Shown: piece by piece, positions 1,596 to 29,299 of the stretch
Position numbering within the stretch: position 1 is the first letter of the stretch
Layout of the letters: each line of letters begins with the position of its first letter
Source: an uncultured virus (IMG/VR IMGVR_UViG_3300029931_000005)
Lineage: Duplodnaviria; Heunggongvirae; Uroviricota; Caudoviricetes
IMG/VR virus record: IMGVR_UViG_3300029931_000005
Direction: 5' to 3' (one strand)
DNA length: 29,299 nucleotides
The notes under the pieces: model-generated
Databases searched by the model: none
Told to the model about the DNA's origin: nothing
Seen by the model: only the letters and a program-made list of their open reading frames with translations
Made by a program: the position numbers and the translations under genes

Positions 1596-3610
1596 ATCTG
1601 CCCCTCTAGATTCTTGTCTAATGCGTATTCACCAAGCAGCCTGACGTTTAGGTCATAAATCCCCACCAGCGCCACGCGACCGGCAGCAGTCACAGTCAGC
1701 ACCATGACGGCCGTACCAAAAGCCTCGGCGCTGGCAATGCCTGCTGGCACAATAAACACAGCGTTATTGTTTATTTCCGTCGCCCCAAACACCTCGCTGC
1801 TGGCTATCCCGGCGGCAACCAGCGAAATGATGGTTTGAATATCGGCAGACCCGAACGCCTCGCCGCTGGGCATGCTGCTGGTCCCCAAGGTGATCCCTGT
1901 GTTTATAACGGCCGTACCAAACGCTTCCAGGGAATCAACGCTAACAGGCAAGAGGATAAGCGCGCCAGAGTCAACCGAGGCCGCGCCAAACGCCTCGCCA
2001 CTGGCAATGCTGTTGACCACCAGGGAGACGAGGGCCTGAATGTTGGTCGCCCCAAAGGCCTCGGAGCTGGGGATACTGCTGGCTGCCAGGGAAAGCAGAG
2101 AATTAAGCTGAGCAGTGCCAAACGCTTCGCCGCTGGCAATGTCGCCCGCCTCAATAAACACCTGTCCCTGGCTCACAGCGGCCGAGCCAAACACCGTGGC
2201 GCTGGCTATCCCGGCGGGCAGCAGCACCACCGCGCCGGGCAAAACAACGGCCGTTTCAAACGCCTCCTGGCTGGCGATTCCATTGGCTACCAGGGTGATA
2301 GAAAACCGCATCTCCGCCGCCCCAAAAGCTTCCTGGCTGCTAATTCCAGCAGGTAACAGGGAAACACTCCCAACGGTCATCAAAGCCGCCCCAAAAGCCT
2401 CCTGTGGGGCAATGCTGGCCGCAGAAAGGGTCAGATTGCCAGTATCAATTACGGCCGTTTCAAATGCCTCCTGGCTGGCCACCCCGCTGGGCAGCAGCGA
2501 GACGAAAGCCTGTAAAACGGCCGTGCCAAATGCTTCCAGGCTGGCAATTCCAGGGGGCAGCAAAACAACAGCGCCGGGGGCAACAACGGCCGTTTCAAAG
2601 GCTTCTAGACTGGCAACGCTGGTGGGGAGAATGGTTATTGCCCCGGAATCTACGAGGGCTGCACCAAATGCCTCCTGGCTGGCCACCCCGCTGGGCAGCA
2701 GCGAGATCAGGGATTGCAGCACGGCCGTGTCAAACGCCTCGCCACTGGCAAGGCTGCTCGTCACCAGAGAAATAGTGGCCTGCAAGGTCGCCCCTCCAAA
2801 GGCTTCCTGCGGGCTAATGCTGGTGACGACAAGGGTCAGGCTGCCAACCTGCACAACGGCCGTTTCAAACGCTTCCAGGCTGGCAATGCCGCTGGGCTGG
2901 ATGGCGATCGCGCCTTGATCAACAACGGCCGTTTCAAAGGCCTCCAGACTGGTAACCCCGCTAGGCTGGACGGTCACCGCTCCGGGTGCTACCGCGTGAC
3001 TGCTAAAGCTCTCTGCGCTATCAATGCTGCTGGCTACCAGGGTTTGAGGGCCTGCTAAACCGCCACCGCCAAAGTCGTCGACTGCACCGCTGGACATACC
3101 AAGCCCAAGATAGCCAGCGGTGGTGTAGGTGCTGTCGGTTCGACTGCCGAGACTGGTCCAGCCAGAACCGGTATCAACATAGGCCGTTAGCGTGCCGGCC
3201 ACAATCTCCAACCCGAATTTGTTCCCGGCGACCAGCTCCTGGCTAAAATTGGCACCCAGGACGGTTTCCACCCCATCATCAAATCGCACAATTTGCAACG
3301 TATCAGTGCCACTCACCTTGTTAAACTTAAGCGCATATCCATCAAACGAACTGCCGGAGATGTCCCCCAGCAGGGCACACACATACATGCTGCGATTGCT
3401 GGACGGCACAGTGGCAATCGTGGTGTACACCTCGCAATCGGCAACGGCGAGAATGGTCGCGTAGTAGCTGATATTCAGTCCAACGGCATTGGCCACGGCC
3501 GTGTTGGATGAAACTCTCAACCCACCCGCGAGATCGGCCCAGCCAGTCATCGGCGGGCCCTCGTTTGATCTGTTGAGGTTGTCGATTATCCCGTTTACAG
3601 GAAAGGCCAT
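1592..3610 (-). CDS. Fibre-like structural protein: N-terminal lectin-like domain plus 20 repeats of 22-23 aa
   Basis: Repeat consensus LLPSGIASxEAF(G/E)TAVV; located in the tail-tip module. Confidence 0.75.
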   Translation of the reverse strand: MAFPVNGIIDNLNRSNEGPPMTGWADLAGGLRVSSNTAVANAVGLNISYYATILAVADCEVYTTIATVPSSNRSMYVCALLGDISGSSFDGYALKFNKVSGTDTLQIVRFDDGVETVLGANFSQELVAGNKFGLEIVAGTLTAYVDTGSGWTSLGSRTDSTYTTAGYLGLGMSSGAVDDFGGGGLAGPQTLVASSIDSAESFSSHAVAPGAVTVQPSGVTSLEAFETAVVDQGAIAIQPSGIASLEAFETAVVQVGSLTLVVTSISPQEAFGGATLQATISLVTSSLASGEAFDTAVLQSLISLLPSGVASQEAFGAALVDSGAITILPTSVASLEAFETAVVAPGAVVLLPPGIASLEAFGTAVLQAFVSLLPSGVASQEAFETAVIDTGNLTLSAASIAPQEAFGAALMTVGSVSLLPAGISSQEAFGAAEMRFSITLVANGIASQEAFETAVVLPGAVVLLPAGIASATVFGSAAVSQGQVFIEAGDIASGEAFGTAQLNSLLSLAASSIPSSEAFGATNIQALVSLVVNSIASGEAFGAASVDSGALILLPVSVDSLEAFGTAVINTGITLGTSSMPSGEAFGSADIQTIISLVAAGIASSEVFGATEINNNAVFIVPAGIASAEAFGTAVMVLTVTAAGRVALVGIYDLNVRLLGEYALDKNLEGQI
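1695..3045 (-). repeat. Degenerate coding tandem repeat, 66-69 bp unit, about 20 copies
   Basis: Recurring AAACGCCTC/CTGGCTGGC/ACGGCCGTTTCAAA blocks on the + strand match the EAF repeats. Confidence 0.85.
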
Positions 3611-14880: not shown

Positions 14881-15684
14881 TTACGAAGATTTCAGAGATT
14901 CGATCAGCCCAATTGCTCCAGACAGCTCGTAGGAAACTCGCTTTAGTTGCTCTAGGGTATAGTCGTCAATTGGGGATTTGCGGGCTAACAAATGGGCCTT
15001 CAAACGAAGGGGGGCCTGAAACTCGTTGCCAAGCGTGTCTCCAATGATGGTATACACCTCCTCCATCTGGATAAACCAATCCTGGCGGCGAAGGTCGCTC
15101 TCAGCTTGTGCAGCACAAAAGCGCAAAGAATGCTCCAATTTGGACACCTCAAGGCGAGCGCTGCGCACCACCTCGTCATTGGCCAGTTCGATCAATTTTG
15201 TTAAATCAACTTCCTCACCAGCGTAACGCCAGACAGCCTGGGAAAAATCCGGCACATCATCGGCTGTGCGTTTGGCAATATTGGCAACAAACTCTATAGG
15301 AAGGCCGTGGCATTTTCGTTGTTTGGCAGCTCTAATCTGCTTGAGAACACCGGCCTTATTCATCTCTATAAGCCCCCACCCTTCTGGAAGCTCGTCAACG
15401 AAAATGACGCCCCCTGGAGCAACGAAATAGGCCTCGTTCGAGTGGAGATAAGCAAACTCGCGCTTGATAGGTTTTTTCAGCTCCCGCAAGAAATCCGCTC
15501 TCGTTACTTTCACCTCATAGACGATGCAGTAACCAAGTGGGGTGCTGCCGCAGCCGGTAGCAATGGCAAAAAAGTCGATTCGCTGTCGGTTTGGTGCTGC
15601 TAACTCAGCAAACGACGCCCATTTGTCGGCGTGACGAGTACAAAGCAATCGTATTATCTTCTGCGATACCTGCTTATTGTCCAA
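14881..15684 (-). CDS. MmcB-like PD-(D/E)XK nuclease-fold protein
   Basis: RIDFFAI...YEVKVTRADFLRE..KP.K...YFVAP.G....ELPEGWGL; looks lower in GC than its neighbours. Confidence 0.7.
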   Translation of the reverse strand: MDNKQVSQKIIRLLCTRHADKWASFAELAAPNRQRIDFFAIATGCGSTPLGYCIVYEVKVTRADFLRELKKPIKREFAYLHSNEAYFVAPGGVIFVDELPEGWGLIEMNKAGVLKQIRAAKQRKCHGLPIEFVANIAKRTADDVPDFSQAVWRYAGEEVDLTKLIELANDEVVRSARLEVSKLEHSLRFCAAQAESDLRRQDWFIQMEEVYTIIGDTLGNEFQAPLRLKAHLLARKSPIDDYTLEQLKRVSYELSGAIGLIESLKSS

Positions 15685-16889
15685 GAGCTATCTTCCAGAA
15701 AATGTTGCCTAAACTGTAATGGTCTGAGAAGGACCAGTAGGCCATCGAAAGCGCCACGCCATTGGTAACAAGGCTGGCAGAAACATCGCCACCAATCAAG
15801 GTTTCATAAGAATCCATTGCAGGCCACGAGGAGGAGCCAGTCATCCAGCCCCGCAACTTGTCTACAAACTCGTCGCTGTCCATAAGTACGGCCGTAGCAA
15901 AACAAAGGCAATTTGGATGCAAGGGCAGAATAATTTCACCAAGCGGGTACACACCATCACCATCCTCTCCGCCTTCGGCCACATCGTCGCACTCGTCGTA
16001 GCCAGCGTGGGCGGGGCTAAGATTTATCTTCTCCTTCTCTACCCACGGCATATTTTCAAACTGCTGTCGCGTTGCCATATGATGAATAGCCTGTATCTCG
16101 GTCCGGGCCAGGCGCAGCGCGTTGTAGCTCACCCCTTGCCCGGCGCAATCTTTGCCGGTCACCAGGCCAAGGCGATTCTTGCGAGCGATGTCACTCTTGG
16201 TGAGGGTGTACAGGCGCTCCTCTGTCCAGCGAGGGCAACCCTGGTTGGCCCCCAGATACTGCTCCAGCATTTCGGCCGTATCCCAGGCGCTCTTCCCCTC
16301 AGAGATAGCCAGAGAGATAACCCGGTCTATGCCCTGACGTGATGTCTGGTCCATTCGCCAAATTCGATTGCTGAGCTGCAGGCCGTCGCTGTACACTCGC
16401 CGCTGGGCGGCATCGAGCAGCAGCTGGAGCTGGGGATCAAAAACGCCGCCAGCAACCCGCTGCTGTTCAGTCAACAGCGACGGCCGTTTCCGGCGACTCT
16501 CCTGAATCTCATCGAGGGCGGGCAGCACGATGTCGCGATGCATCACGGCAAGGGTGCCAAAGGGGATGGCCGCCGCGTGACGCATGGCCCGGCCCAATAG
16601 CTCCGCATATAGCTGGAAACTCATCCCAGGCATCGAGCGTAGCCCGCAGCGCCCGCGAGCCGATAACAGAATCCACCTTCTCCCCACCCTGCCGCAAAAC
16701 GGCCGTGCCAGCATTGGCCACGTCCAGCAGCAGGCGATGAACCTCCCCCATGACGAAGAGGTTAAGGCGCACCACGGCCACCTGCTGCGCCTGGTGGACA
16801 TTTTTCAGGGTGATGTCGTCCAGCGTAGCGTCTGGCAGCGCAACCTCTGCTTCTTCTATTAAATGTGGGGTAATTACACCGATATTCAC
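15674..16889 (-). CDS. Head morphogenesis protein (SPP1 gp7 / Mu gpF-like), split by a +1 frame change near 16617
   Basis: N-terminal part in ORF 16509..16889 (coupled to the portal stop). C-terminal part in ORF 15674..16801 with LSNRIW, NALRLARTE and PLHPNCLC. Confidence 0.75.
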
Positions 16890-18190
16890 GGGGTAAAACC
16901 CTTAGCCAGCGAGCTGGCAATATTTGCCAGCCGCTCAGGGTCTAAATCCCCCCCACCCTCCGGCAGCAGCAGCTCCGGCTCTACGCCCAGGTATGGGGCA
17001 ATGATGGTGGCAATAATGTTGGCGGGGATGCCCAGGATTTGCATCTTTACGGCCGCTTCCACAATATTGCGAATGTCTTCTGGTGTGACCTTCTTCTTGG
17101 GCGGCCGCTTGATGGAATATTCCACCGTGTCCGGCAAGATGCCCAACAGCAACCACTGACGGTGCAGCAGCGGCTCCAGAATGTCGCCAACCACCCAGCC
17201 CCAAATCTCATCCAGAGATTCATCATACTGCTCTTTCTGGTAACCAATTACAGAGTAGTCAATATCCTGGCCATAACCCAGGATAGCCATCGGTGCGGGA
17301 GAATTGAGCCACCAGGTATTGAGGTGGTGGCGGATGTCGGTAATCTCACCCAGCTGGGCGTCGCCCTGCAGCACGCTTACATCGCCGTCGCTGTTCATGA
17401 AGAGGTCAGCCACGGCCGCAAAGGGGTTGTCCAGCACGGCCTTATTTTGCGTCTGGTATTTGGCCACGGCCCCCTCATCGTTCGTTTTCAGCTTGTGGAC
17501 AAATTTTAGACCAGCGCGAGTTTTCCGGCGCACGGCCACATCCAGCTCGCCCTGGTCCATGCGCTTGTAGGCTTTTTGCCCAGCGGCCAGCAGGGGACGG
17601 CCGTACCGTTCACCCTCATCATGGTCCCACCGAGCGTGAATGATTTCCCACTCGGCCAGCCAGATGTCATCTTTGTCAGGTTTCGTTTGCCACGGCCGTA
17701 CGGAATACCAGAAGGCCCGCAGCGGATCATCGAACCGGTCCAGGCCGTTGGAATTGCGGTGCATGTTGAGGGTAGGCTTGCGGGTAACGTCTACGATAAG
17801 ACGTTGGTTATTGACTGCCAGCTGCAGGAACTCATCACCATCCCGCAAGCAAAGGCGTACCCAATCGTCCAGGCGGCTCTGGAGCTTAATCCGCTTCACA
17901 AGGGCATCGGCAGCTTCTTTGGCGCGGGCATCGGTAGCTTCTATCTGGAAGCCGGCTTTTGTCGCATCCCGAGCAACTGCGGCCAATATCTCTTTGGCAC
18001 GGCCGTCCCCGCTAACGATTTCTCGGCTGTGCAGGATGTCGGCCATCCGCCCCTTCTTGGTTTCAAAGGCGGAGAAAATATCGGGAGCCTGGCGGCTCCG
18101 ATCGTCAACAAGCTGCTGAAACTCATCGGCCGTTGTGGGTTCACTGCGGCCCCGGCTAAAAAGGCGGTTAACTGCGTCTCGTAGGCCCAT
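16886..18190 (-). CDS. Portal protein
   Basis: 434 aa; IIHARW...YGRPLL....KAYKRM...ELDVAVRRKTRAG resembles the T4 gp20-like portal motif; precedes the head morphogenesis gene. Confidence 0.8.
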   Translation of the reverse strand: MGLRDAVNRLFSRGRSEPTTADEFQQLVDDRSRQAPDIFSAFETKKGRMADILHSREIVSGDGRAKEILAAVARDATKAGFQIEATDARAKEAADALVKRIKLQSRLDDWVRLCLRDGDEFLQLAVNNQRLIVDVTRKPTLNMHRNSNGLDRFDDPLRAFWYSVRPWQTKPDKDDIWLAEWEIIHARWDHDEGERYGRPLLAAGQKAYKRMDQGELDVAVRRKTRAGLKFVHKLKTNDEGAVAKYQTQNKAVLDNPFAAVADLFMNSDGDVSVLQGDAQLGEITDIRHHLNTWWLNSPAPMAILGYGQDIDYSVIGYQKEQYDESLDEIWGWVVGDILEPLLHRQWLLLGILPDTVEYSIKRPPKKKVTPEDIRNIVEAAVKMQILGIPANIIATIIAPYLGVEPELLLPEGGGDLDPERLANIASSLAKGFTP

Positions 18191-18191
18191 A

Positions 18192-18560
18192 TCAATCTTT
18201 CAACAGTCTATCCAGTGCGTCTTCTATCTCTGGAGCCAACAGGTCAATGGTCGGCACGATAATGGCATACATCCCACCGTGATCTAGCTCCAGATGAATA
18301 CCATACTCAATCGTGTGGCCATGACTCAGATAGATCGTGACCACCCCGTCAGCGGTATGCTCTGCAATTGAGAACAAACCGCTGCGGGCATTTCCAGTGC
18401 GATCCTCCCATGGAGCACCTATTCGCATCTCGTCTTGCGCCTCAGCGGCAAAATATTCGCCTAAGGCCAGGATGGATGCAAAGACGCGTTCGCCGTACTT
18501 TTCAATGTTACGGGCCAGCGCGTCCGGGTGCTTAACCCACTGGAATCCACTGGTGGCCAT
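18192..18560 (-). CDS. Neck protein (HK97 gp10-like)
   Basis: APWEDRTGNARSGL...IEYGIHLEL...YAIIVPT. Confidence 0.8.
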   Translation of the reverse strand: MATSGFQWVKHPDALARNIEKYGERVFASILALGEYFAAEAQDEMRIGAPWEDRTGNARSGLFSIAEHTADGVVTIYLSHGHTIEYGIHLELDHGGMYAIIVPTIDLLAPEIEDALDRLLKD

Positions 18561-18564
18561 GGGT

Positions 18565-18984
18565 TTACCCTGCGGGTGTAAATGTCGTGGGTGGTGCCAG
18601 GAGATAGGGATTCGGGTCTTTTAGGGAAGGCTTCACAGCGTTAAAGACGCCCTCCACAAAGTCATCCACCTGCTCCCGTGTAAGCGGCCAGCCCTGAGTA
18701 TGGGCAAAGGTGTAGACCGCATTAACCACAAACTCTTTTTTCTGCGCGTTGGTTTCCAGGCCCAACTGCTGCTCGGCGCTCCGGATCATGGCTTCGGTAA
18801 AGCCCCATACCAGATTGAAACGCTCGGTGCCCAGCTGCGCGGCCACCTTCTCGCGAAGGACCAGGAAATAGAGCCGCGCCTGATTGGCCAGGATGGGCAC
18901 AACCAGGGTGACGATGACGCTGAGCAAACCCAGGCCCAGCCGCCACAACAGTTCAGAAGTGAAATTTTCCAAGATGCTATTCAT
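18565..18984 (-). CDS. Holin (LL-H-like)
   Basis: One N-terminal TM helix, then IRSAEQ...AQKKEFV...QVDDFVEGVF. Confidence 0.65.
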   Translation of the reverse strand: MNSILENFTSELLWRLGLGLLSVIVTLVVPILANQARLYFLVLREKVAAQLGTERFNLVWGFTEAMIRSAEQQLGLETNAQKKEFVVNAVYTFAHTQGWPLTREQVDDFVEGVFNAVKPSLKDPNPYLLAPPTTFTPAG

Positions 18985-19319
18985 TATTGACTTAACTCCG
19001 CTTCGGCCTGCACGCTGATCTGCGTGTTCGGCCGTATAAACGTGACCCGATACAAACGGCCGTTGAGGGTGAACCGGTCGTCTTTTTGAATATCTAACGT
19101 GGTGTCACCCACCACCACGATCTGGGCCCGAGACTCTTCTGACTTTTCGCCGTTCGCCTGTCTGCCGCGGCTGCGGGTACGCTCGACACGCACTGTTTGA
19201 GCTGCCAGTATGGTGGTTGACCCACTCACATCCCGGCGCAGCACGAGGGAAACGGAGTTATCGCCGATCAAGCTGGCAACATCCGCCTTCATCTTGGCAA
19301 TGTCAGCAGCAGTCAGCAT
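18984..19319 (-). CDS. Head closure / head-tail joining protein
   Basis: MLTAADIAKMKAD...LDIQKDDRFTLNGRLYRVTFI pattern. Confidence 0.7.
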   Translation of the reverse strand: MLTAADIAKMKADVASLIGDNSVSLVLRRDVSGSTTILAAQTVRVERTRSRGRQANGEKSEESRAQIVVVGDTTLDIQKDDRFTLNGRLYRVTFIRPNTQISVQAEAELSQ

Positions 19320-19622
19320 TTAGCTGCGGTCCAGGTATTGCACCAGCAGCTTGCCGCCAGTAGAGGCGGTGCCGCCAGCGTTGTTGATGGTGTTGGCAGC
19401 CGTGATGGTGAACTCACTGGTGAGATCGGCAATGTCGGTGACGGCCGTACCTGCGCCAGGGAAGTGCAGCACGCTGATCAGCTCGTCAGCGGTGCTGATA
19501 CCCGTCACGGTGCGGTTACCCGCGCTGCCACCAGCAACAACGGCCATCTTGAAAAGGCCTCGCGCCAGCACCCCCTCGCGGGAACCAAAATCGGTTAAAG
19601 TTTGGACTTTAGGCATGGTCAA
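19320..19622 (-). CDS. Small virion structural protein
   Basis: Gly/Thr/Ala-rich 100 aa, translationally coupled within the head-completion genes. Confidence 0.6.
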   Translation of the reverse strand: MTMPKVQTLTDFGSREGVLARGLFKMAVVAGGSAGNRTVTGISTADELISVLHFPGAGTAVTDIADLTSEFTITAANTINNAGGTASTGGKLLVQYLDRS

Positions 19623-20278
19623 ATCTCCTCGGTCATGTAGGTGGGATACGTAGCCTGCATACCAATCGGGCCAACGTAATCTGCCACCATCTGGTCAAAC
19701 TGCTCATTTAATTGGGTGATGACCGACCCAATCGACGCATTAAGGTTCGACTTGTCGATCATCACATCCCCAAACTGATACTTCCAGTTATCACCCACCG
19801 CCCCGGCATTGATGAGGCGCAGCGCCTCCGCCTGGGCTTTGGTAATAACAATGTCCTGCATTTCATCTTCCAGGTAGGGGTACACCTCATCATCATTGAG
19901 GACGTGCCCGGCGCGGTACCACATATAGAAGGTGACGCTGTAGGCGGGCGTGGGTACAAAGGTGATGGTTTTGCCTGTGATGCTGTACTGCCCAGGCAGC
20001 GAGATGCCATTGAGAGGCACGAGGCCACCCCCTGGCTGCACATACACACCGTCGCCGGTGATGGTGCTCTCAAAGCGGATGATGCCCACAAAGTCATCGG
20101 GCAACGCATACGAGGCGGTGCCGTTCACCACGTTGAGCGCGGCACGCCGCTGCATGCCGACCTTTTTGGAGAAAGCTCGAACTGACCGCTTAACGGCCGA
20201 AATCATCTGCTCGGTCGTTAGGCCAGTCGGAAAGTAAACCTCCAGCTCCTCTATCAGGTCATCCAGAGCAATGGCCAT
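19619..20278 (-). CDS. Head-tail adaptor protein
   Basis: VVNGTASYALPDDF...ITFVPTP motifs and position downstream of the capsid gene. Confidence 0.6.
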   Translation of the reverse strand: MAIALDDLIEELEVYFPTGLTTEQMISAVKRSVRAFSKKVGMQRRAALNVVNGTASYALPDDFVGIIRFESTITGDGVYVQPGGGLVPLNGISLPGQYSITGKTITFVPTPAYSVTFYMWYRAGHVLNDDEVYPYLEDEMQDIVITKAQAEALRLINAGAVGDNWKYQFGDVMIDKSNLNASIGSVITQLNEQFDQMVADYVGPIGMQATYPTYMTEEI

Positions 20279-20856
20279 TAAGCAACCTCGAATTCCCCGT
20301 CACGCTGGAAGCGGACCAACCAGGCACCGGGATAATCGGCAACGGCCGTTTCAAACTGAGCAAACGGCACACGGCGGGACTCACCTTGCAAGATGCGACT
20401 GCCACCCAGAATGGCGGAGGCCAGGGTGTTCAGGCGGATAACCACCTCGGTAGGGCGATCTTCCCAATCTGCATAGACGGGGGTGCCGTCCCCACCTTCC
20501 GGGTCACCCGCAACGGGGTCATCTGCGACCGGTGCGGCCGTGTCATCAGACTCGGGCTCGGGCTCGGCTACGGCATCACCCGGTTCACCCGCGCCCCCAG
20601 GTTCAACATCGGGATCCGAATTCGGGGTATTTAGGTCACTTACCTCGGGGGTTGGTTCCTGGGGCGCAGGCGTACCCACGGCGGCTCCGGTCAACTCGGC
20701 CTCAGCAGCAGCCAGAATTTGATCGGCCGTTGTTTCGCCAATGCCGGAGATGTTGGTCAGCCCTTCCTTGCCAGCCTGCAGCGCCTGTACGGCCGTTTTG
20801 ATACCAGCATCGTCCAGGAGCTTGCGGGTGCGTGCGTTTAGCGTTTCAAAAGACAT
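20278..20856 (-). CDS. Helix-hairpin-helix protein with acidic Pro-rich linker
   Basis: Start moved to ATG 20856 (AGGAGG SD). LLDDAGIKT...LTNISGIGETTADQI is an HhH motif. Confidence 0.7.
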   Translation of the reverse strand: MSFETLNARTRKLLDDAGIKTAVQALQAGKEGLTNISGIGETTADQILAAAEAELTGAAVGTPAPQEPTPEVSDLNTPNSDPDVEPGGAGEPGDAVAEPEPESDDTAAPVADDPVAGDPEGGDGTPVYADWEDRPTEVVIRLNTLASAILGGSRILQGESRRVPFAQFETAVADYPGAWLVRFQRDGEFEVA

Positions 20857-20875
20857 GGTACCTCCTGATAGGGAG

Positions 20876-20913
20876 ATGTGCGGCGGGCCGGAGTAGGGGA
20901 GCCCGCCGCACAT
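20876..20913. other. 13-bp perfect inverted repeat downstream of the capsid gene (stabilising, processing or terminating stem)
   Basis: ATGTGCGGCGGGC (20876-20888) / GCCCGCCGCACAT (20901-20913); no U-tract on the minus strand. Confidence 0.55.
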
Positions 20914-20943
20914 TAAGGAAAAGGCGCTCAGCTAATTGGGCGC

Positions 20944-23742
20944 TTAGCTGATCTTGACGTAGGCGCCCTTGCCAGGAATCGGGGCGATATACCCGTTGTA
21001 CTGCTGGATATAATACTGTTCGCTGGCCACCAACTCGCGGTCGCTGTTGTAGGTCGGGAACGGGCCTTTCAGCTCCATTGCCCCGAAGGTGCGGTACATC
21101 AGCAGCTCGCGGTTGTGAATGAGGGCGTAGGCATCGGTGAACACCGGCGAGGCGTACACATCCAGCCCCTTCATCCGCCCCACGTACCCGGCTTCGTCCA
21201 ACATGGTGTCAGGACGGGCACCTGCGGCCGTGAAGAAATCGGCGTTGGAAATCAGGTCGCTGTTGGTCTTGCTCATCAGCATAATTTCCGGGGTGTAGAA
21301 GCGGTTCTCCACCTTCACCCGCGCCGTACCGGCTTTCTTGAGAAATTCCTTTTCGGAATCGGTGGCCGAGGCCCAGGTGCCGCCAGAGTTGCTGGCTACG
21401 GTGAGCACACGGCTCAAGGCATCGTGCATCAGGTTGCTGTCAATCCGGCGCATCACCTCTTTCATGAGCAGGTTGATGGTCCGGCCGACCACGTCGTAGC
21501 CCAGCTGGGAACGGCTGAATTTGATAGCCTCGTCGGTCACTTCCGTGGCCAGGCGGTCGGCAATCAAGCTCAGGTCCTCGTAGGCCACTTTGGAGCGGGC
21601 GCGTTCAATACCCAGGCCCTCACCCTTGCGGATGGCTTTGTGGGTGTAACTCACGTAGACCGTGGCCGCGTCAGCGATTGCCCCGTCGGCGAAGTTCATG
21701 AAACGGCCGTTGGTGTGGTCAATCACGTAATCGGTGCCATAGGTGTACAGCGTGCCGCCACCAGAGGCGGCGCTGCGAGCCACAATCGAGCTGGGGTCAA
21801 CACGCTTGTTGGCCAGGTTCACCCAGGTGTCGTCATCGGCAGTGATGCTTTCGTCGGTGACCGTGACATTGGTGCCGGTCTCTGCCTCATATTGAGCCTC
21901 ATAGAACACGCGGGTGGGGTTGGTGTCCACCGTACCCACATCGAAGATGCTCAGCGCCACCAGCTGCGGGAAAGCCTCGTCCACGATGGCCCGGAGCACG
22001 CTGTAAGGCGAGTTCAACTGGCTGGTGGTCATAGCCTCCTGCCAGTCGTGGGCTTCCTTGGCCAACTGGCGCTCAAACTGCTTGTCGAACGCTTCCAGGT
22101 ACAGCTTGGTGAAGCGTGCGGCCCGGCTGGTCTGGCTGCGATTTTGGCGCGGCTGCCAGAAGTTGTGGGCAATCATGGATTCGGTGATTTCATAAGCAGC
22201 CCGAGCAAACTCAGGCACATTAGCTTCGGCTTCAATCATCGGCACGATGTGCTGCACACGGCCGTTGCCACCCATACCCATTTGGGTCAGACGCTCTTTG
22301 GCGACCAGGGGGGCGAACAAGGCTTTGGCCTCTTCCAATTTGGTCTTGGCAATTTCCGCGGTGGCCGCTTCGCCGATATAGGCCTTCACCCGGTCCTTAT
22401 ACAGTTCGGGATAGGGCAGCTCAGCAACGGCCGTTTCCACGTAAGTGGCGGCTTCACGAGCCAGGTCTTTGGCGCGGCCCTCGTCCAGCTTTTTCTGCTC
22501 AGCGGCCAGCGCTTCGGCCAGGTTGCCATCGGGGCCAATGCCCAGGCGTTCGCGCAGAGCTTTCTCGGCCGCAGCAGCGGCAGCCTGTTCTTTGGCTTGG
22601 ACTTCGACCAGTTCGGCCTGACGTTGGGCTTCGGCCTCTTCCAGCTTGGCAGCCTTGTCGGCAGCAGCTTTGGCGGTTGCCTCGGCCGTTTTCACGGCTT
22701 CTTGCAGCTCTTTGATTCGAGCTTCGGCCGCATCAACGGCAGATTTGTCTTTGGCTTCACGCAGGGATTTCAGTTCTTTCTGCGCTTCGGCCAACTGTTG
22801 TTTGAGTTGTTCAATGTCCATTTCGTTCGTCGTGCCTCCATTTGCACTTTCTTGGAATGCGGTGACGCCAGCACCGGCAAAGCCTGGCTCCAGGACCAGA
22901 TCGGCCCCGGTTAAGCGCAGCCAGATAACCTCATCGATGGTTTCGTCACCCTCTTTAACTTGCTCACTCTCGCCGTAGGCCCTAAGCGAGATAGGAGGCA
23001 TCACTCCCGCTCGCATAACCGACAGGACATCTTTGCCAACGGCCGTTTCCACGACATTGCCAGCGATGTAGACCCAGCCGTCCGATTCGTCGAACCAGAC
23101 GTCGTCCCACACCACCACAACTTCGCGGAGCATTGGCCGCTGATACTTGTCCCCCGGATGAGCATCCTCGCCGGTCAGGATGGCGCGTGCCTGGGAAAAG
23201 CTCTCGTGCAGGTGGGAGCGCGCTTCTTCCACCGCATCACGGAGCACAATCCGCCGATACCGCCTGCCATTGCGATTTACCACATCCGCTTCGGCTAATT
23301 TGGCCTCTACACGCGGCACACCTGGTTTCTTCTTGTTCTTGGCTTCAACCAGGCGCACTGCGCTTGCATACGTTTCTGTAAATTTGGAGCCGCGCTTGAG
23401 GCGCTGCTCTGACATAGGGGCTGGCTCTCCTCCCCCGCCCTGGCTGCCGGGCAACTGGTAGCCCAGCTCGATCACTTCCCAATCCTCACGAGGGGCAAAC
23501 GTCACCTTGGCACCATCGCGCTGATAGGCGACCATGTAGAATTCGTCGATGGGCAGCTGGCTGCTGGACACCACGATGAATTCAGCAAAGGTGTCCTCAA
23601 CGTTGAACCACTCGCCGCTTTCATAGTCCCAATTGCTGGGGAACGTCTTGTGAAATGCCCGCACAATGACGTGCCGGGTGTACTCGATGGAACCCTTTAC
23701 CAATTCAGTTAGCGGGCTGCCCCGGTTAATACGCTTTTTCAT
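20944..23742 (-). CDS. Prohead protease-scaffold-major capsid polyprotein
   Basis: NRNGRRY...GEDAHP...ISLRAYG...GADLV protease motifs (T4 gp21-like), an Ala/Glu/Lys coiled coil, then a capsid-like C-terminal ~360 aa; AAGGAG SD. Confidence 0.88.
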   Translation of the reverse strand: MKKRINRGSPLTELVKGSIEYTRHVIVRAFHKTFPSNWDYESGEWFNVEDTFAEFIVVSSSQLPIDEFYMVAYQRDGAKVTFAPREDWEVIELGYQLPGSQGGGGEPAPMSEQRLKRGSKFTETYASAVRLVEAKNKKKPGVPRVEAKLAEADVVNRNGRRYRRIVLRDAVEEARSHLHESFSQARAILTGEDAHPGDKYQRPMLREVVVVWDDVWFDESDGWVYIAGNVVETAVGKDVLSVMRAGVMPPISLRAYGESEQVKEGDETIDEVIWLRLTGADLVLEPGFAGAGVTAFQESANGGTTNEMDIEQLKQQLAEAQKELKSLREAKDKSAVDAAEARIKELQEAVKTAEATAKAAADKAAKLEEAEAQRQAELVEVQAKEQAAAAAAEKALRERLGIGPDGNLAEALAAEQKKLDEGRAKDLAREAATYVETAVAELPYPELYKDRVKAYIGEAATAEIAKTKLEEAKALFAPLVAKERLTQMGMGGNGRVQHIVPMIEAEANVPEFARAAYEITESMIAHNFWQPRQNRSQTSRAARFTKLYLEAFDKQFERQLAKEAHDWQEAMTTSQLNSPYSVLRAIVDEAFPQLVALSIFDVGTVDTNPTRVFYEAQYEAETGTNVTVTDESITADDDTWVNLANKRVDPSSIVARSAASGGGTLYTYGTDYVIDHTNGRFMNFADGAIADAATVYVSYTHKAIRKGEGLGIERARSKVAYEDLSLIADRLATEVTDEAIKFSRSQLGYDVVGRTINLLMKEVMRRIDSNLMHDALSRVLTVASNSGGTWASATDSEKEFLKKAGTARVKVENRFYTPEIMLMSKTNSDLISNADFFTAAGARPDTMLDEAGYVGRMKGLDVYASPVFTDAYALIHNRELLMYRTFGAMELKGPFPTYNSDRELVASEQYYIQQYNGYIAPIPGKGAYVKIS

Positions 23743-23878: not shown

Positions 23879-24223
23879 CTACTCACCTTTTAGAATGAGC
23901 TTGATGGTTCGCGCCGCCCCCTGATTGACCGGAACGCCGCTGGTGCCGCTGCGGACTTTGATCCAACGGCCGATGCCGATCAGATCGTCAGACCCCAGAG
24001 CAATGGCACGAGAAGCGGCAGCAGTGATGGTGAATTCGGTTGCGGCCTTGTCGTACACATTATTGTAGGTGCCGGTTTCAGTAACGGCCGCTTGCAGCGT
24101 GAGGTTGGCTGCGGTCCAGGCATCGGGCATCACAACACCAACCAGGGTTTTGGTACCCAGATACACGGCCGCGCTGAGTGACGCGCCGTTGGGGATTACA
24201 ACATCAATTACCGCATCGTTCAT
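23879..24223 (-). CDS. Small beta-rich protein, possibly capsid decoration
   Basis: IPNGASLSAAV...MPDAWTAANLTLQ...IKVRSGT..PVNQGAARTI; AAGGAA SD; adjacent to the capsid gene. Confidence 0.6.
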   Translation of the reverse strand: MNDAVIDVVIPNGASLSAAVYLGTKTLVGVVMPDAWTAANLTLQAAVTETGTYNNVYDKAATEFTITAAASRAIALGSDDLIGIGRWIKVRSGTSGVPVNQGAARTIKLILKGE

Positions 24224-24338: not shown

Positions 24339-24821
24339 TTACGGTAGTTTTACCCCACTGTTTGCTATCCTCAATTTGTAATAATACTTATCACCAAGCG
24401 CTCGCACCTTTTGGGGGTCCGATTTTCTGCCGACACCGTTGCATAAGGGAGACATATCATATATTAACTTTTCCTCATATCCCTTTCGTGCATCTTTTCC
24501 CGAAAGACGCACGGCTTCGTGCTGGCTCACATCATACAATTGGCACCACAGTTCTACATGCTGCTTGGGCAAACCCATTCCCTTTACAATATCTGCGGCG
24601 TCATACATATCTACTGTAATATTTTCTATCCCGGCAACCTCAATTGCTTCACTTAAGTTGCGGTTTGTTCTTTGCTTCCTAAAATGCTCCCAAACCCTTG
24701 ATGGAGCATAGGTGCTTTCGCCAATATAAAGGATGTCCTCGCCGCATCTAAAAACATAAACGTAATAGTCGCCATCTGGATACGTGTCGTTTTTGATTTC
24801 TTCGTAATTGGTAGCAATCAC
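24339..24821 (-). CDS. GIY-YIG nuclease
   Basis: YYVYVFRCGEDILYIGES....RVWEH; start moved to GTG 24821 behind an AGGAGAG SD; AT-rich. Confidence 0.8.
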   Translation of the reverse strand: MIATNYEEIKNDTYPDGDYYVYVFRCGEDILYIGESTYAPSRVWEHFRKQRTNRNLSEAIEVAGIENITVDMYDAADIVKGMGLPKQHVELWCQLYDVSQHEAVRLSGKDARKGYEEKLIYDMSPLCNGVGRKSDPQKVRALGDKYYYKLRIANSGVKLP

Positions 24822-24856
24822 TTTTGCTCTCTCCTGTTCCAGTTGTGATAATTGAG

Positions 24857-24882
24857 AAAAAAGGGCGAAACGGCCGTTTCGC
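24857..24882 (-). terminator. Intrinsic terminator-like hairpin built on the iterated palindrome
   Basis: 18-bp perfect palindrome GCGAAACGGCCGTTTCGC (24865-24882) followed by CCTTTTTT on the minus strand. Confidence 0.65.
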
Positions 24883-24920: not shown

Positions 24921-25013
24921 GATCGTAACGATCTCGGGTCACAGAGATAAGCCAGTGTCTGTGGTTGTAACAACCACAGAGATGTCTGTTCGTGTAACAC
25001 GAACGGACATCTC
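24921..25013. repeat. Three tandem inverted repeats, each centred on G-TAA-C
   Basis: GATCG-TAA-CGATC (24921-24933); TCTGTGGTTG-TAA-CAACCACAGA (24958-24980); GAGATGTCTGTTCGTG-TAA-CACGAACGGACATCTC (24979-25013). Confidence 0.9.
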
Positions 25014-25389
25014 AACCATCCGTGTTAGGCGTACAGTTAGCCTCGTCCTCCGGGTCGTCTCGCTTTGGTTTCCCTAGTACCTCTGGCGCGAGTCGGCAGA
25101 TCGTGACGAGTCCGTCGCTCGGATCGATGCCTAGGCGCTCGCGGAGATGTTTTTCGCTCCACTGGAGGTAATCTTCCTTCTCGCGACGCCAACGCGCCCT
25201 TGCCTCCAGAAACCTCACCACCAACGGATGGTCTGCCGGGTACATCTTCAGCATTTCTTCCAGCTTTTTTTCTGCGACAGGACGCACCTCTTCGATTCTC
25301 CGTAGTGCGTCCTTCAGCGCTGCCAAATAAACTTCCAGGTTTTCACCCTCAATACCACTCAAAAGCTCTTCGGTTCCATCGTGTGTCAT
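25012..25389 (-). CDS. Hypothetical helical protein carrying a scaffold-like peptide
   Basis: Likely start ATG 25389 (GGAG SD); contains EKHLRERLGIDP. Confidence 0.65.
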   Translation of the reverse strand: MTHDGTEELLSGIEGENLEVYLAALKDALRRIEEVRPVAEKKLEEMLKMYPADHPLVVRFLEARARWRREKEDYLQWSEKHLRERLGIDPSDGLVTICRLAPEVLGKPKRDDPEDEANCTPNTDG

Positions 25390-25428
25390 GTTATTATCTC
25401 CATCTTGGATATTTTTACACAAAATAAA

Positions 25429-25731
25429 CTACCCACCACTCCCCCCAACGGCCGTTTTCACATCTGCCCGGTCCAGGATGGCCGTAGCGGCTTCGCGTCG
25501 GACACTGGGGTCAGAGTGGGCCAATAGGCACACCAGTGTATGGACCGCTGCGGGTGCCGCAATTTCGAACCTTTCATTATTCTGACGAATGCGATCACTG
25601 ACTTTATTGTAAAGCCCGACGCACTGATCGACCGCGAAGCCGTGCTCAGCCATCAGAATCTGGGCCACGGTCAGCATTATCTGACCAGCTAAATCTCCCG
25701 GCGCAGGCGCACCCAACCTCACCACAGACAT
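25429..25731 (-). CDS. Chimeric protein: paralog of 26523..26813 fused to a copy of a TerS C-terminal segment
   Basis: Start ATG 25731 (AAGGAG SD); hand alignments given under findings. Confidence 0.75.
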   Translation of the reverse strand: MSVVRLGAPAPGDLAGQIMLTVAQILMAEHGFAVDQCVGLYNKVSDRIRQNNERFEIAAPAAVHTLVCLLAHSDPSVRREAATAILDRADVKTAVGGSGG

Positions 25732-25753
25732 ATTCTCGCTCCTTATCTCAATA

Positions 25754-26215
25754 TTACTCACGGCCATCCTCCTCGACTGTCGTCTCCTCAACGGCCGTTT
25801 CTGTACCCTGAACCAACTTGGGATATGGTTCGAGGTAACCCATATCCCCCTCGTGTTTGGGAACCAAGGCTACGGCCGTGACTGCGAGAATTTTTGTTAC
25901 AACCTGCGGCCCATCGGGGCTGAGCTGGTCTGACTCCACAACCATACTGAGCGCCGGTCGGAGGTTGGCGGCGACGGCTTCATCAAGTGGCGTTTCAAAA
26001 TATATGACCAACTGGCCATCCACAAGCCGAACCTGGCCAATGGCATCCTCCAGGCGATACCCAGGCCACAAGGGAGTCAGGTTATAGCTAACAAGCGTGC
26101 CAGGCAGCATTTGCCGCACCAGTTCCTTTGCCTCATCGGATAATGTGTACCCGTTGAAGGACTCGCCCATCAACATGCCGTCATGCAGAACATAAGCGCC
26201 ATATGCCTTACTCAT
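25754..26215 (-). CDS. Hypothetical protein, possible degenerate prohead-protease paralog
   Basis: Start ATG 26215 (GAGGAGG SD); collinear motifs shared with the capsid protease domain. Confidence 0.55.
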   Translation of the reverse strand: MSKAYGAYVLHDGMLMGESFNGYTLSDEAKELVRQMLPGTLVSYNLTPLWPGYRLEDAIGQVRLVDGQLVIYFETPLDEAVAANLRPALSMVVESDQLSPDGPQVVTKILAVTAVALVPKHEGDMGYLEPYPKLVQGTETAVEETTVEEDGRE

Positions 26216-26226
26216 CTCCATCCTCC

Positions 26227-26523
26227 TCAACGGCCGTTTTTCTGGCCACTTCTCAAGTTTTCCAACATGTGGTCAAGATCGCTGGATAAATCCCATAGCG
26301 GTTCCAGGATCGGGTACGTTGTAACATCTGCGCTCATCAGGCCGGTTTTTGGGATGTGCACGGCAAAATCGTCAGGCAGCTTAGATTCGATAGTAAACAG
26401 TGCTCGATCTAGCCAGTGCATGATGTCATCAAGAACGGCAATCAGAACCTCACTGTTGCCCGCGCTGGCTTGAATCAACCGGGAGAGGGGAATAGCCACC
26501 AGGGTTTCGTTGATAGAATCCAT
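26227..26523 (-). CDS. Hypothetical protein
   Basis: TAATG coupling and GAGGGGG SD; no family recognised. Confidence 0.6.
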   Translation of the reverse strand: MDSINETLVAIPLSRLIQASAGNSEVLIAVLDDIMHWLDRALFTIESKLPDDFAVHIPKTGLMSADVTTYPILEPLWDLSSDLDHMLENLRSGQKNGR

Positions 26524-26813
26524 TATGCATCCCCCTCGACGGCCGTTAATGCCTCAGGCGCGGCCGTTCCCTCTTCCGCCCACGCCGCCTGGCCACCACG
26601 CAGCACGGCATTGTTCTGGCGGATGTGTTTGACCACCTTTTCGCCAAACTCGACACACTGATCTTGGGTAAAGCCATAGTCACCTATCAGGACCTGGGCC
26701 GCAGCCGTCATTATCTGGCTGGCCGAATCCTGGCGCACCTGCATCTCAAATGCCGCCTCGCGCAGCGCCTGGCGCTGTCTGCCGCTTACCTTGGTTTTGA
26801 TTTTCTTTCTCAT
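26523..26813 (-). CDS. Hypothetical protein
   Basis: AAGGGAAGGA SD; has an internal paralog at 25429..25731. Confidence 0.7.
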   Translation of the reverse strand: MRKKIKTKVSGRQRQALREAAFEMQVRQDSASQIMTAAAQVLIGDYGFTQDQCVEFGEKVVKHIRQNNAVLRGGQAAWAEEGTAAPEALTAVEGDA

Positions 26814-26823
26814 GTCCTTCCCT

Positions 26824-27096
26824 TTAACCTAAATCGTTAATGGCGCCGTGGTCGGTGCGACGGCCGCCCAGAATGCTGTCATCCAGGATGGCCCACACGG
26901 ACGGCTCTGGTTGATAAATTGGAACGCCTCCGGCGCTGATCTTCTCCATCAGCTGCCTAACCCCTTCCCTTGAGCGATACCCTGCTATTTCCATAACGCG
27001 CTCCACGGTAATACGTTTGTCTCGGCTGGTGAGCATGACAAAAACCACCTTGGCCGAGCGCCCCTGCGGGCTCATATCCTCGTAGATTAAGCTCAT
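26824..27096 (-). CDS. Winged helix-turn-helix DNA-binding protein
   Basis: ITVERVMEIAGYRSREGVRQLMEKISAGGVPIY, an HTH_11-like pattern. Confidence 0.55.
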   Translation of the reverse strand: MSLIYEDMSPQGRSAKVVFVMLTSRDKRITVERVMEIAGYRSREGVRQLMEKISAGGVPIYQPEPSVWAILDDSILGGRRTDHGAINDLG

Positions 27097-27129: not shown

Positions 27130-28878
27130 CTAAGTAAGTCCCAACTGGTCGGTCGTAACGACACGGCCGGTTCCGACTTCTAATTTTTTCTCAATCTCGG
27201 TAAAAATGTGCGGCGGAGCTGCGCACAGAACAAACCCATCACCATCGTCTGGCGAACGGCCGTATTCCTTCTTGAACTCGTCCTTATCCACCAGGCGCTT
27301 GATGGTCTTACCCGATCGGTTAACCCACTTCCACTTGCGGGCCGTCAGGTCAACCTCCAGTTCGTTAGGCGGGTCTACAACCTGGATACCCTTGATGGTC
27401 TCCCCGGCCTCGGCGTACATTTCCGTGACGATGAGATCGTAGGCATTGGGGTCATGAGCAGCAGAGCCGAAGTGAACTTCAATCACCTTGAACTCATCAA
27501 ACGCTTCCTCCAGCTCAATGTCCATTTTCAACAGGTCGATAGTGCCCCCACCAAAGCCGCCTGTGCCGTCCACGCGGATGTGCAGCTTTGTGACGCCCAG
27601 CCTGGCCAGGCGCAGGGCAGCTTTGCGCGTTTCCTGGTAGTAGACATTGTTGTCTAACTGGAAAAACTGAGCCTGCCGCCAGATGCGGCCCGCATGGCGA
27701 ATGTAGAGCGTGCCAAAGTCGCTGCCGCGCCGGGCGGCATCAATTCCCATGTAAGCCGTTGTCAGGTCGTGCTCGACCGGATTTACCTTACGTGCAACGG
27801 CCGATTCGTAGCGGCCAGATGGGATGAATGTATCATCACTGGTTTCCTTGGGGGCAATCCCCATGACACGGAAGAGGTATTCATTGTTTGGGCGATAAAT
27901 GACGCCCGGTTCCCACGGCAGCTCGAAAGTAAACCAGTCGGGGTTGTGCTCTGGTACAACGCGGCAGTGTTTTTCTACCATGGTCAGCACATAATCGCGG
28001 CGGACCGCGCCGGGCACAACCTCACGGCCGTGGAGCACGTTGGGGTGATGGTGGCAGCTCATGCGGAAATTAACCACATCCGACTGCCCGCGCTGCCGGT
28101 GAAACTTGCTGGTCCGGGTGCGCGGGTTGGCCGTCATGATCACGATGGCAATACCACCAGAGGCCATAGAGTCCACCGCGTCCCACACAAAGTCGGCGAC
28201 GCCCTCGGCTTCATCCAGGATGAACATCAGGTATTTTTCATGCTGCCCCTGGGCACGTTCGGTACCGGCGTTGTTGGCATTGTTGGTAGCCTTACCCTTG
28301 GCGAAGTGATTGGGCTTGTATTTCAGCTCTGGCTTTTCTAGGACGGTGCCGGGCAGGTCGATGTTGCGGCGACGGTCGGTGCGGATCTCCTTCCACAGCA
28401 GATCGTTGATCTGCTCGTAGGTTGGAGCGAAGGTGTACTCAATGCAGCCATCGGTCTCTTCTTCTGCAACGCAGTCGAAGAAGTGAGAAAACAGGCCAGA
28501 TAAAATCTTGGTCTTGCCCGTGGTGTGACCCGCCTCGATGCGCAGCCGATTTTGAACCGTCTGTCCCGGCTGCCAGTGCTGCAAATCGGCCGTAGCTACG
28601 TGGCCTTTCTCCCACTTGTCCTTTTCGTGCAGCTGCAGCAGAGCCAGGCGATACGCTTCAATAATCTGCACCTGTCCGGGATGTTCGGCCGTGCCGCTCC
28701 ACGGCGTCCAGCCCAGGCGCTCCACAATGTAGGTGTATGGGTCGTACTTGTAGCCAGACAGGGTGGGATAGGTGTACTGAACGGCCGTTTCCGTCTGGCG
28801 GCGGCGGCGCTCCTTGGCTGCAGCCAGGCGCACGTCGGCAAGGGTGGTAATCTGGCGGGTAGTGGTAGGCATCATCAT
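27130..28878 (-). CDS. terL: Terminase large subunit
   Basis: Walker A AGHTTGKT, Walker B FILDEAEG, TANP, nuclease motifs MGIDAAR.GSD and SPDDGDG. Confidence 0.93.
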   Translation of the reverse strand: MMMPTTTRQITTLADVRLAAAKERRRRQTETAVQYTYPTLSGYKYDPYTYIVERLGWTPWSGTAEHPGQVQIIEAYRLALLQLHEKDKWEKGHVATADLQHWQPGQTVQNRLRIEAGHTTGKTKILSGLFSHFFDCVAEEETDGCIEYTFAPTYEQINDLLWKEIRTDRRRNIDLPGTVLEKPELKYKPNHFAKGKATNNANNAGTERAQGQHEKYLMFILDEAEGVADFVWDAVDSMASGGIAIVIMTANPRTRTSKFHRQRGQSDVVNFRMSCHHHPNVLHGREVVPGAVRRDYVLTMVEKHCRVVPEHNPDWFTFELPWEPGVIYRPNNEYLFRVMGIAPKETSDDTFIPSGRYESAVARKVNPVEHDLTTAYMGIDAARRGSDFGTLYIRHAGRIWRQAQFFQLDNNVYYQETRKAALRLARLGVTKLHIRVDGTGGFGGGTIDLLKMDIELEEAFDEFKVIEVHFGSAAHDPNAYDLIVTEMYAEAGETIKGIQVVDPPNELEVDLTARKWKWVNRSGKTIKRLVDKDEFKKEYGRSPDDGDGFVLCAAPPHIFTEIEKKLEVGTGRVVTTDQLGLT

Positions 28879-29299
28879 TTCAACAATGCCTCAATCACAT
28901 CCTGGGGCGATCGAGCGTTTTGCAGCGCCTCAATCTGCACCAGGGTCAGGGCGGTCATGTCGATGTTATTCAAAATGAGGTTCATCAACTGGCCTTCTTT
29001 GGACGCCGTTTCCACGCCTGCCCGATCCAGGATGGCCGTAGCAGCCCGGTATTGGACGTTTGGGTCGGGGTTGGCCATCAGGGCCACTAACTTGCCGGCC
29101 GCCGTAGGCGCAGCCAGCTGCAGGCGCTCAGTGGCCAGTTGCAGCGACCTCACATATCTACTGTCCTGCCACTCCTTGGCCAGTGTGCTCAGCGCTCCCA
29201 GGCAATCGGCAAAAGCCGGGTCTAGCTTCCATTTCGTGTGATAGGTTTTGACGTTGCAGGTGTCAGGGCGGCCAAACACGGCCGTTTCCGACTCGCCAG
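28875..29299 (-). CDS. Terminase small subunit (5' end outside the window)
   Basis: Frame open to the right edge; TYHTKWKLDPAF...AATAILDRAG; ATGA overlap with terL. Confidence 0.7.
   Translation of the reverse strand, partial: GESETAVFGRPDTCNVKTYHTKWKLDPAFADCLGALSTLAKEWQDSRYVRSLQLATERLQLAAPTAAGKLVALMANPDPNVQYRAATAILDRAGVETASKEGQLMNLILNNIDMTALTLVQIEALQNARSPQDVIEALLK

Follow-up and report, generated by a model that had tools for sequence, protein, structure and literature searches.

Late operons of tailed phages carry mosaic accessory ('moron') genes and conserved sequences at the boundaries of modules (Hendrix/Juhala-type mosaicism), and the Staphylococcus aureus pathogenicity islands (SaPIs) encode small-terminase homologues and Ppi, i.e. 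paralogues of the small terminase subunit TerS or TerS-binding proteins, which redirect or block packaging. Here we describe an array of six small genes (positions 25012–27096, minus strand) in a 29,299-nt stretch of DNA, hereafter the window, from an uncultured wastewater phage (IMG/VR record IMGVR_UViG_3300029931_000005, Caudoviricetes). The array is an instance of phage accessory-gene mosaicism with a TerS-derived chimera. As with morons, small lineage-restricted genes lie between conserved structural genes and homology ends at short shared gene-boundary sequences; unlike in those systems, the boundary is a fixed 15-mer, composed of an 8-bp palindrome and the Shine-Dalgarno (SD) sequence of the next gene, which recurs at four consecutive junctions, and in contrast to classical morons the genes of the array have neither a promoter nor a terminator of their own. 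SaPI TerS proteins are full-length and functional, whereas the chimera has only a 42-residue hairpin, without the DNA-binding domain and the tail. The palindrome, ACGGCCGT, is comparable to HIP1 (GCGATCGC) of cyanobacteria in that it is a heavily over-represented 8-bp palindrome in a subset of related phages; new here are its local use in a repeated gene-junction element and its position at the end of a duplicated terS segment. The chimera can also be likened, by description and not by sequence, to Rpp of the Gram-negative phage-inducible chromosomal islands (PICIs), as a small protein with the small terminase as its presumed target and altered packaging as the outcome. Rpp is satellite-encoded and is reported to form a heterocomplex with TerS that changes DNA specificity (PMC6739421); the chimera, unlike Rpp, is phage-encoded and derived from TerS.

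All six open reading frames (ORFs) are co-oriented on the minus strand downstream of terL and, as read from the sequence, are equipped with SD-like sequences or with overlapping stop and start codons. In the order of transcription they are a 90-aa gene (26824–27096), a conserved neighbour of terL with a winged helix-turn-helix (wHTH)-like character that is a lead only; a 96-aa gene (26523–26813) with a basic N-terminus, a conserved helical core and a variable tail ending in TAV; a 98-aa gene (26227–26523), the start of which overlaps the preceding stop (ATAATG); a 153-aa gene (25754–26215) with no assigned fold; the chimeric gene (25429–25731; 100 aa, or 110 aa from an alternative GTG start at 25761); and a 125-aa gene (25012–25389) encoding a helical, acidic protein. 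These ORFs are real accessory genes, the 98-aa and 125-aa ones probably so. Two adjacent perfect or near-perfect hairpins (24958–25013) follow directly after the stop codon of the last gene, and a terminator-like hairpin with a T-run (24855–24882; hairpin and T-run read 24882–24865), which has the palindrome within its stem, lies beyond them, all on the minus strand. The 191-nt stretch after the last gene folds with z=-4.7, and 0 of 200 shuffles were as stable. An earlier reading of the DNA by a model (the original prediction) had placed six small co-oriented genes between terL and the capsid gene and had them closed by hairpins and a terminator. The closing structures were confirmed, as were the six genes with their SDs and coupled starts; two further genes, a GIY-YIG-like ORF and a 114-aa ORF absent from that reading, intervene between the array and the capsid fusion gene. 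The start region of the 153-aa gene (26205–26226) and that of the alternative GTG start of the chimera (25754–25770) are near-identical, consisting of GAGGAGGATGG, 3 bases and TGAGTAA, and both proteins, the chimera when read from this start, would begin with M-S-K/N.

All-against-all BLASTP was performed with the 35 minus-strand proteins of the window, and Smith-Waterman scores were set against those of 200 shuffles. The product of 25429–25731, for which a TerS-like piece had been predicted, does contain one: it is 59.5% identical to TerS over 42 aa (E 5e-12), with z=20 and 0/200 shuffles reaching the score, and at the DNA level the identity is 89.5% over 38 nt. The duplicated segment of TerS (29004–29129, minus strand; aa 137–178 of the full-length protein) is a HEAT-like helical hairpin, and the Pfam models HEAT_EZ/HEAT and Arm match this region of TerS below cut-off. 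The other part of the gene had been missed by the earlier reader, and comprises residues 13–52, which are 52.5% identical (40 aa, BLASTP) to residues 29–68 of the 96-aa gene product. On the minus strand the gene thus consists of a core of the 96-aa family (25576–25695), the TerS hairpin (25450–25575) and the family tail TAVGGSGG. When the 96-aa family was aligned with this protein, the TerS segment was found to occupy the place of a short variable linker between the core and the ...TAVG.. tail. From its sequence, 25429–25731 is a chimera, namely a gene of the 96-aa family that carries a HEAT-like TerS hairpin. The similarity to TerS is confined to this hairpin: when profiles of the family, with the chimera included, and of the N-terminal part of TerS were compared, no similarity emerged (hhalign probability of 0.4%).

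The TerS with which the chimera was compared is the product of the gene at the usual terS position, of which the window holds the 3' 140 codons (28875–29297, minus strand), with a stop that overlaps the start of terL. The full gene encodes 220 aa in a near-identical viral record of 39.9 kb (G001, 100% identical to the window over the 5.6 kb compared; gene at L003:16198–16860), in which a further copy of either piece of the chimera was not found. Its only match to a TerS family among PHROGs is a weak one, to PHROG 2538 'terminase small subunit' (E 0.015, aa 134–181). In 27 of the 61 ORFs located upstream of terL (60 related loci and the window, including the window's own TerS) the C-terminus bears the tail D-L-S-x-L-T-x-E-Q-L, and a HEAT-like motif is present in 3 of the 61. 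The chimera has neither this tail, ending instead with TAVGGSGG, nor the N-domain of the TerS lineage (with the invariant SETAVF..PD.C...TY..KW..D..FA.CL), and it is not at the TerS position, being 1.4 kb downstream of terL, four genes away and not coupled upstream; of the characters of TerS it retains only the central HEAT-like hairpin. Substitution estimates (Nei-Gojobori, 40–42 codons, dS near saturation) are similar for the two parts: in the TerS half dS is 1.28 and dN 0.30, and in the half derived from the 96-aa family the values are 1.25 and 0.33, respectively. As dS is about 1.25 and the ratio of nonsynonymous to synonymous rates (dN/dS) about 0.25 in both halves, in what is a comparison of paralogues within the window, the fusion is old and both halves are kept by selection. 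Its maintenance makes the gene an obvious candidate for modulating the terminase and, by Rosetta-stone logic, hints at a joint action of the 96-aa family and TerS. No description of a TerS-hairpin chimera was found in the literature on terminase small-subunit paralogues, a search that did not cover most subscription journals.

The 90-aa and 96-aa genes are under purifying selection and travel with terL in the closest relative. This relative, the closest found by terL among genome contigs, is a contig of 2,391 nt (CALKWL010000075.1, L082) whose TerL is 80% identical to that of the window and which shows terL, a 90-aa homologue and a homologue of the 96-aa family in the same order. The 90-aa homologue shares 86% identity over 87 aligned codons (83% by tblastn), with dN/dS of 0.16, as compared to 0.10 for TerL, and the homologue of the 96-aa family shares 52–54% identity. 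Another 90-aa homologue follows terL in one viral locus (L029). Further relatives were available as contigs of four runs (X5, X6, X7 and X9, from four studies) at 80% likeness, covering the 90-, 96- and 153-aa genes, with no cover over 25050–25424, 25500–25724 and 26250–26549 (125-aa gene, body of the chimera and 98-aa gene). Among the 40 displayed of 150 differences, those in the 90-aa gene, taken singly, were 16 silent and 6 non-silent; two triplets are TCN-to-AGY serine switches, and counted by codon the residue changes in 2 only. Those in the 96-aa gene were 11 silent and 6 not, and within its core (codons 10–69) all 9 of 9 were silent. The contig L082 had been binned in a metagenome-assembled genome (MAG) labelled Gammaproteobacteria, and it carries three copies of the palindrome; the label is probably a binning artefact, because some of the few named members of the family are from Chloroflexota MAGs and because of these three copies.

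Members of the 96-aa family are few: five were found in 5.8 billion clusters, in addition to the one from L082. The members in the window (26523–26813), P0145–P0147 and P0132 have a near-invariant core, with tails that differ in length and sequence, each with one or two ETAV units encoded by the palindrome; these tails look as if built by indels around the palindrome. A homology of the family with transcription activator-like effector (TALE) repeats (PDB 3ugm_A and 4hpz_A; window 26610–26729) was considered and rejected, the whole-chain E of 7.5e-14 being a sum over 24 near-identical repeats. A motif of 14–17 residues in the core, VL..HGFTPDQCV, does resemble the helix-turn junction between TALE repeats, but no single repeat scores above 7.4 bits against the family profile (best E 51), so we take the motif as a lead to a helical-hairpin fold and not as a sign of homology. 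Across 70 viral loci with the same terL family the array is not conserved as a unit, and the only matches in them were the 90-aa homologue after terL in L029, a 98-aa homologue located elsewhere in L069 (the only one for this gene, 44% over 72 aa, at a different position relative to terL) and matches to TerS. Scans of viral contigs with alignments of the 90-aa and 98-aa proteins returned known loci only, together with one weak match of 29 residues. The four genes other than the 90-aa and 96-aa ones are restricted to a very narrow lineage or are sporadic.

The octamer palindrome ACGGCCGT occurs 48 times in the window, as compared to 0.6 expected, which is an approximately 80-fold over-representation. 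Among the 70 related viral loci it is dense (1.6–2.3 per kb) in four (L028, L033, L069 and L076) and present in 0–3 copies in the rest; it thus shares with the highly iterated palindromes (HIPs) an abundance well beyond chance and a restriction to certain lineages. Copies inside genes mostly encode T-A-V by their reading frame, and ten copies lie in one tail-fibre-like gene (2247–2932 inside the ORF 1592–3610). Within the array, the palindrome is joined to an SD in a 15-mer, ACGGCCGT-YGRGGRG, whose purine run is in each case the SD of the next gene. There are four occurrences of the 15-mer without mismatch, and with at most one mismatch five were found against 0.04 expected. All four exact copies are on the coding (minus) strand and at consecutive junctions, i.e. 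96/98, 98/153, 153/chimera and chimera/125: ACGGCCGT with CGAGGGG between the 96-aa and 98-aa genes (26532–26546), with TGAGGAG between the 98-aa and 153-aa genes (26223–26237), again with TGAGGAG in the tail of the 153-aa gene (25784–25798) and with TGGGGGG at the end of the chimera (25441–25455).

Two of these elements coincide with ends of homology. Contigs of runs X5 and X7, from two studies, both cease to match the window at 25784, the last base of the third element, and beyond it their sequences differ from the window and from each other. At the fourth element, the match of terS-type contigs (from three runs) to the chimera starts only at 25451, and the DNA likeness to terS within the window ends at the same base, inside the element. 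Of seven consecutive genes of the cluster, five also have the palindrome no more than 40 nt from their stop codon, as compared to 1 of the 27 others (Fisher p=4e-4). A Chloroflexota counterpart of HIP1 that lies between genes, where a duplicated segment ends and where homology breaks off makes it possible to test whether iterated palindromes are linked to phage mosaicism. In the literature on highly iterated palindromes in connection with Chloroflexi, searched with the same coverage as above, one paper was retrieved, on cyanobacterial methylation, and no description of the junction element was found.

The explanation that we favour, with a probability of about one half, is that the array constitutes the variable tail of the terS–terL transcription unit of a Chloroflexota siphovirus-like phage and is made of coding accessory genes that are possibly packaging-associated. 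Recombination at the junction elements would build and reshuffle it. The location next to terL and the joining of a TerS piece to the 96-aa core make it probable that the chimera, like the 90-aa and 96-aa proteins, cooperates with the terminase; all three would probably serve as small adaptors or DNA-binding proteins when packaging is initiated. The chimera itself probably docks on TerS, or on a partner of TerS, via the shared hairpin, and, because the TerS tail is lacking, it would modulate terminase assembly or packaging rather than perform it. A more far-reaching version, speculative and in our opinion unlikely, makes of the array a set of palindrome-delimited cassettes: ACGGCCGT with the SD would be a portable recombination joint in phages of palindrome-rich Chloroflexota, by which small late genes are swapped and pieces of essential genes grafted, and the TerS-hairpin chimera would insert into, or cap, TerS rings, tuning the initiation of packaging or excluding related superinfecting phages.

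Several points weigh against a packaging-associated array assembled at the junction elements. None of the six proteins gave a significant match in Pfam, PHROGs or PADLOC, and searches of PDB sequences with profiles of the 90-aa, 96-aa-family and 153-aa proteins were likewise without significant result. The chimera, 98-aa and 125-aa genes were seen in no relative, and selection on the chimera is deduced from the paralogue comparison of 40–42 codons. That the shared hairpin is an oligomerisation interface or core of TerS is our assumption from TerS structures in the literature. In the AlphaFold2 (AF2) model of TerS, helices are placed at 144–153 and 159–178, with a predicted local distance difference test (pLDDT) score of 65 overall and 52–63 in the hairpin region, and a Foldseek search with this model against PDB returned nothing at E<=0.001 and found no TerS. 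Of the 20 matches to the chimera in 1.84 billion representatives, 18 are other proteins, mostly long ones matched in several stretches as repeat proteins are; one of them that was fetched has 329 aa and HEAT-type repeats, and HEAT-like hairpins are generic. With regard to the junctions, direct breakpoint evidence exists at one of them only. A general rule by which the palindrome marks the ends of small genes was tried and rejected, since no more than 4 of the 48 small ORFs from four further loci rich in the palindrome complied with it, approximately the expectation from density; the pattern is therefore local to this array.

Among the alternatives, the one that survives best, although rather unlikely, is that the products of the array regulate late genes: the 90-aa protein, wHTH-like, and the 96-aa family with its basic N-terminus would bind DNA and control transcription of the downstream head genes, and the TerS piece would be an incidental structural graft. 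The original prediction had a wHTH gene at the head of the cluster. The 90-aa gene is indeed the first after terL, but its protein has no HTH match in Pfam, PHROG or PDB sequence searches, and the wHTH assignment comes from a language-model tool (Atlas), which places it among winged-helix regulators with 10 of the 10 best named matches in one clan. The scores for these winged-helix families, 0.86–0.88, are below the tool's own line of 0.9, and by the tool's statement shuffled proteins give an all-one-clan result one third of the time. The basic N-terminus of the 96-aa family speaks in favour of regulators, as does the presence, ahead of the head genes, of a terminator and a separate unit.

In the original prediction the array was an accessory operon assembled from diverged fragments of the phage's own head-assembly proteins, a possible decoy or interference module, i.e. 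small proteins that mimic TerS, the prohead protease and the scaffold and so absorb immune sensors or poison the assembly of competitors. Accessory operon was the right label, and a piece of TerS that has diverged under selection is indeed found in one of the genes; a hairpin of TerS without the conserved tail is what one would expect of a dominant-negative subunit. TerS-binding proteins are, moreover, used by satellites, and Rpp forms a heterocomplex with TerS (PMC6739421). Of the three claimed mimicries, however, two fail or are marginal, with only the TerS resemblance significant, the scaffold resemblance reduced to a short motif and the protease resemblance absent, and an assembly from head-protein fragments was an overstatement; as far as the comparisons go, the array is not a set of such fragments. 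The 153-aa protein (25754–26215), the supposed protease-like one, gave no BLASTP match to the prohead protease of the phage at E<1, a Smith-Waterman z of -0.3, with 120 of 200 shuffles scoring as high, and an hhalign probability of 0.14%, and it matched no Pfam family even at E<=10. Against a decoy stand also the lack of any PADLOC match above noise or other anti-defence signal, and the location of the gene in the phage's own late operon, where its product would encounter the TerS of the same phage. PMC13581612 mentions the small terminase as a conjectured STAND target, one not yet identified, and a phage-encoded terminase decoy of Avs was not found in the literature on Avs decoys (with the coverage of journals given above). 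We found no positive evidence for a decoy or interference role and consider it quite improbable, and the failure of the claim of a self-mimic immune-decoy operon is worth recording.

The 153-aa protein has only three relatives (99, 84 and 78% identity). Their start is fixed and the body of the protein conserved, whereas the tails diverge after ETAV; overall, conservation in relatives is 77–85%. Its AF2 model, from an alignment of four sequences, has a pLDDT of 37.8 and is unusable, and the Atlas lead to Mu-like_Pro and DUF2213 (0.93–0.94), with just 2 of the 10 best named matches in agreement, is flagged by the tool as probably wrong. A genome-contig scan with the 153-aa alignment found nothing, and a match in a flagellar rod gene in the metagenome scan was discarded as chance.

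The scaffold-like piece predicted for 25012–25389 is present as a single motif of 17 residues with 11 identities (25105–25155 in the 125-aa gene versus 22516–22566 in the scaffold region of the capsid fusion). With BLASTP E of 0.13–0.26 and z=5.2 (1 of 200 shuffles as high for the match, 0 of 200 reaching 11/17 for the motif; DNA identity 32/51), it is not significant after correction for the roughly 200 protein pairs compared, and we regard the likeness as suggestive. It is the starting point for the explanation that the 125-aa protein, and perhaps others, is head-internal cargo, which enters the prohead by means of the scaffold-like motif and is cut there by the S77 (T4 gp21-type) protease at L-x-E, as the internal proteins of T4 are. 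The specificity of gp21 is L/I-x-E, and capsid-targeting sequences are known in T4. The motif, common to the scaffold region, contains L-R-E, and the 932-aa fusion protein unites a prohead protease domain (S77, Pfam E 2.5e-14) with a coiled-coil scaffold region and a capsid domain. In five related viral records the S77 family gave no match, the controls being equally silent. L-x-E is nevertheless frequent by chance, the match does not withstand the multiple testing, and no relative in which conservation of the motif could be seen was found for the 125-aa gene, either in cultured phages or in the 70 terL-related loci; cargo is about as improbable as a decoy.

The original prediction had allowed for neutral debris, in the event that only the TerS match was significant and dN/dS was near 1; the former is what we found, but dN/dS is far below 1 wherever measurable and the genes are therefore not neutral debris. 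That they are neutral duplication debris or spurious ORFs is hardly credible, since, although they are ORFans, with 3 to 5 relatives each for the 153-aa gene and the 96-aa family among billions of proteins and no match for the 125-, 90- and 98-aa proteins in 50,697 cultured phage records, dN/dS values of 0.16–0.25, the concentration of differences at third codon positions and the conservation of starts and SDs largely refute it for the 90-, 96- and 153-aa genes and the chimera.

The long ORFs of the whole window are all on the minus strand and represent the late region of a siphovirus-like phage. The order is terS-position gene (cut by the end of the window), terL, the six small ORFs, the GIY-YIG-like ORF, the 114-aa ORF, the 932-aa fusion, adaptor and head-closure genes, portal, MuF-like gene, tape measure and tail genes. 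The portal gene (16886–18190) is far from terL, and the MuF-like gene is at 15674–16801. It should be noted that the order in 15674–23742 is unusual, with the 932-aa fusion, adaptor, head-closure, holin-like ORF and neck protein all before the portal. The same phage region is carried by a 91-kb metagenome contig (9,543 nt, 100% identical). TerL (27130–28878, minus strand, 582 aa) has 658 homologues, many at 55–60% identity, and is called terminase in distant cultured phages; some of the homologues are named by their sources as proteins of Chloroflexota or Anaerolineae MAGs. The terL family is attached to many different structural modules, and even capsid and portal are not common across it (70 viral loci).

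Of the two genes between the array and the head genes, the 114-aa ORF (23879–24223), the immediate upstream neighbour of the capsid fusion gene, has a strong terminator behind it (23797–23769) and no family match except a weak one in PADLOC ('subtilase', E 4e-4), which is probably spurious. The GIY-YIG-like ORF (24339–24821 from an SD-supported GTG start, the ORF extending to 24884) matches Pfam PF01541 with E 0.007 and 17.1 bits, the gathering cut-off being 22.6, and the YVY...YIG spacing is visible. It is in a stretch of low GC content (0.49 versus about 0.56) and may be an insertion of the homing-endonuclease type. Inteins of the LAGLIDADG type are present inside terL of the relatives P0047, P0055, P0063 and L029.

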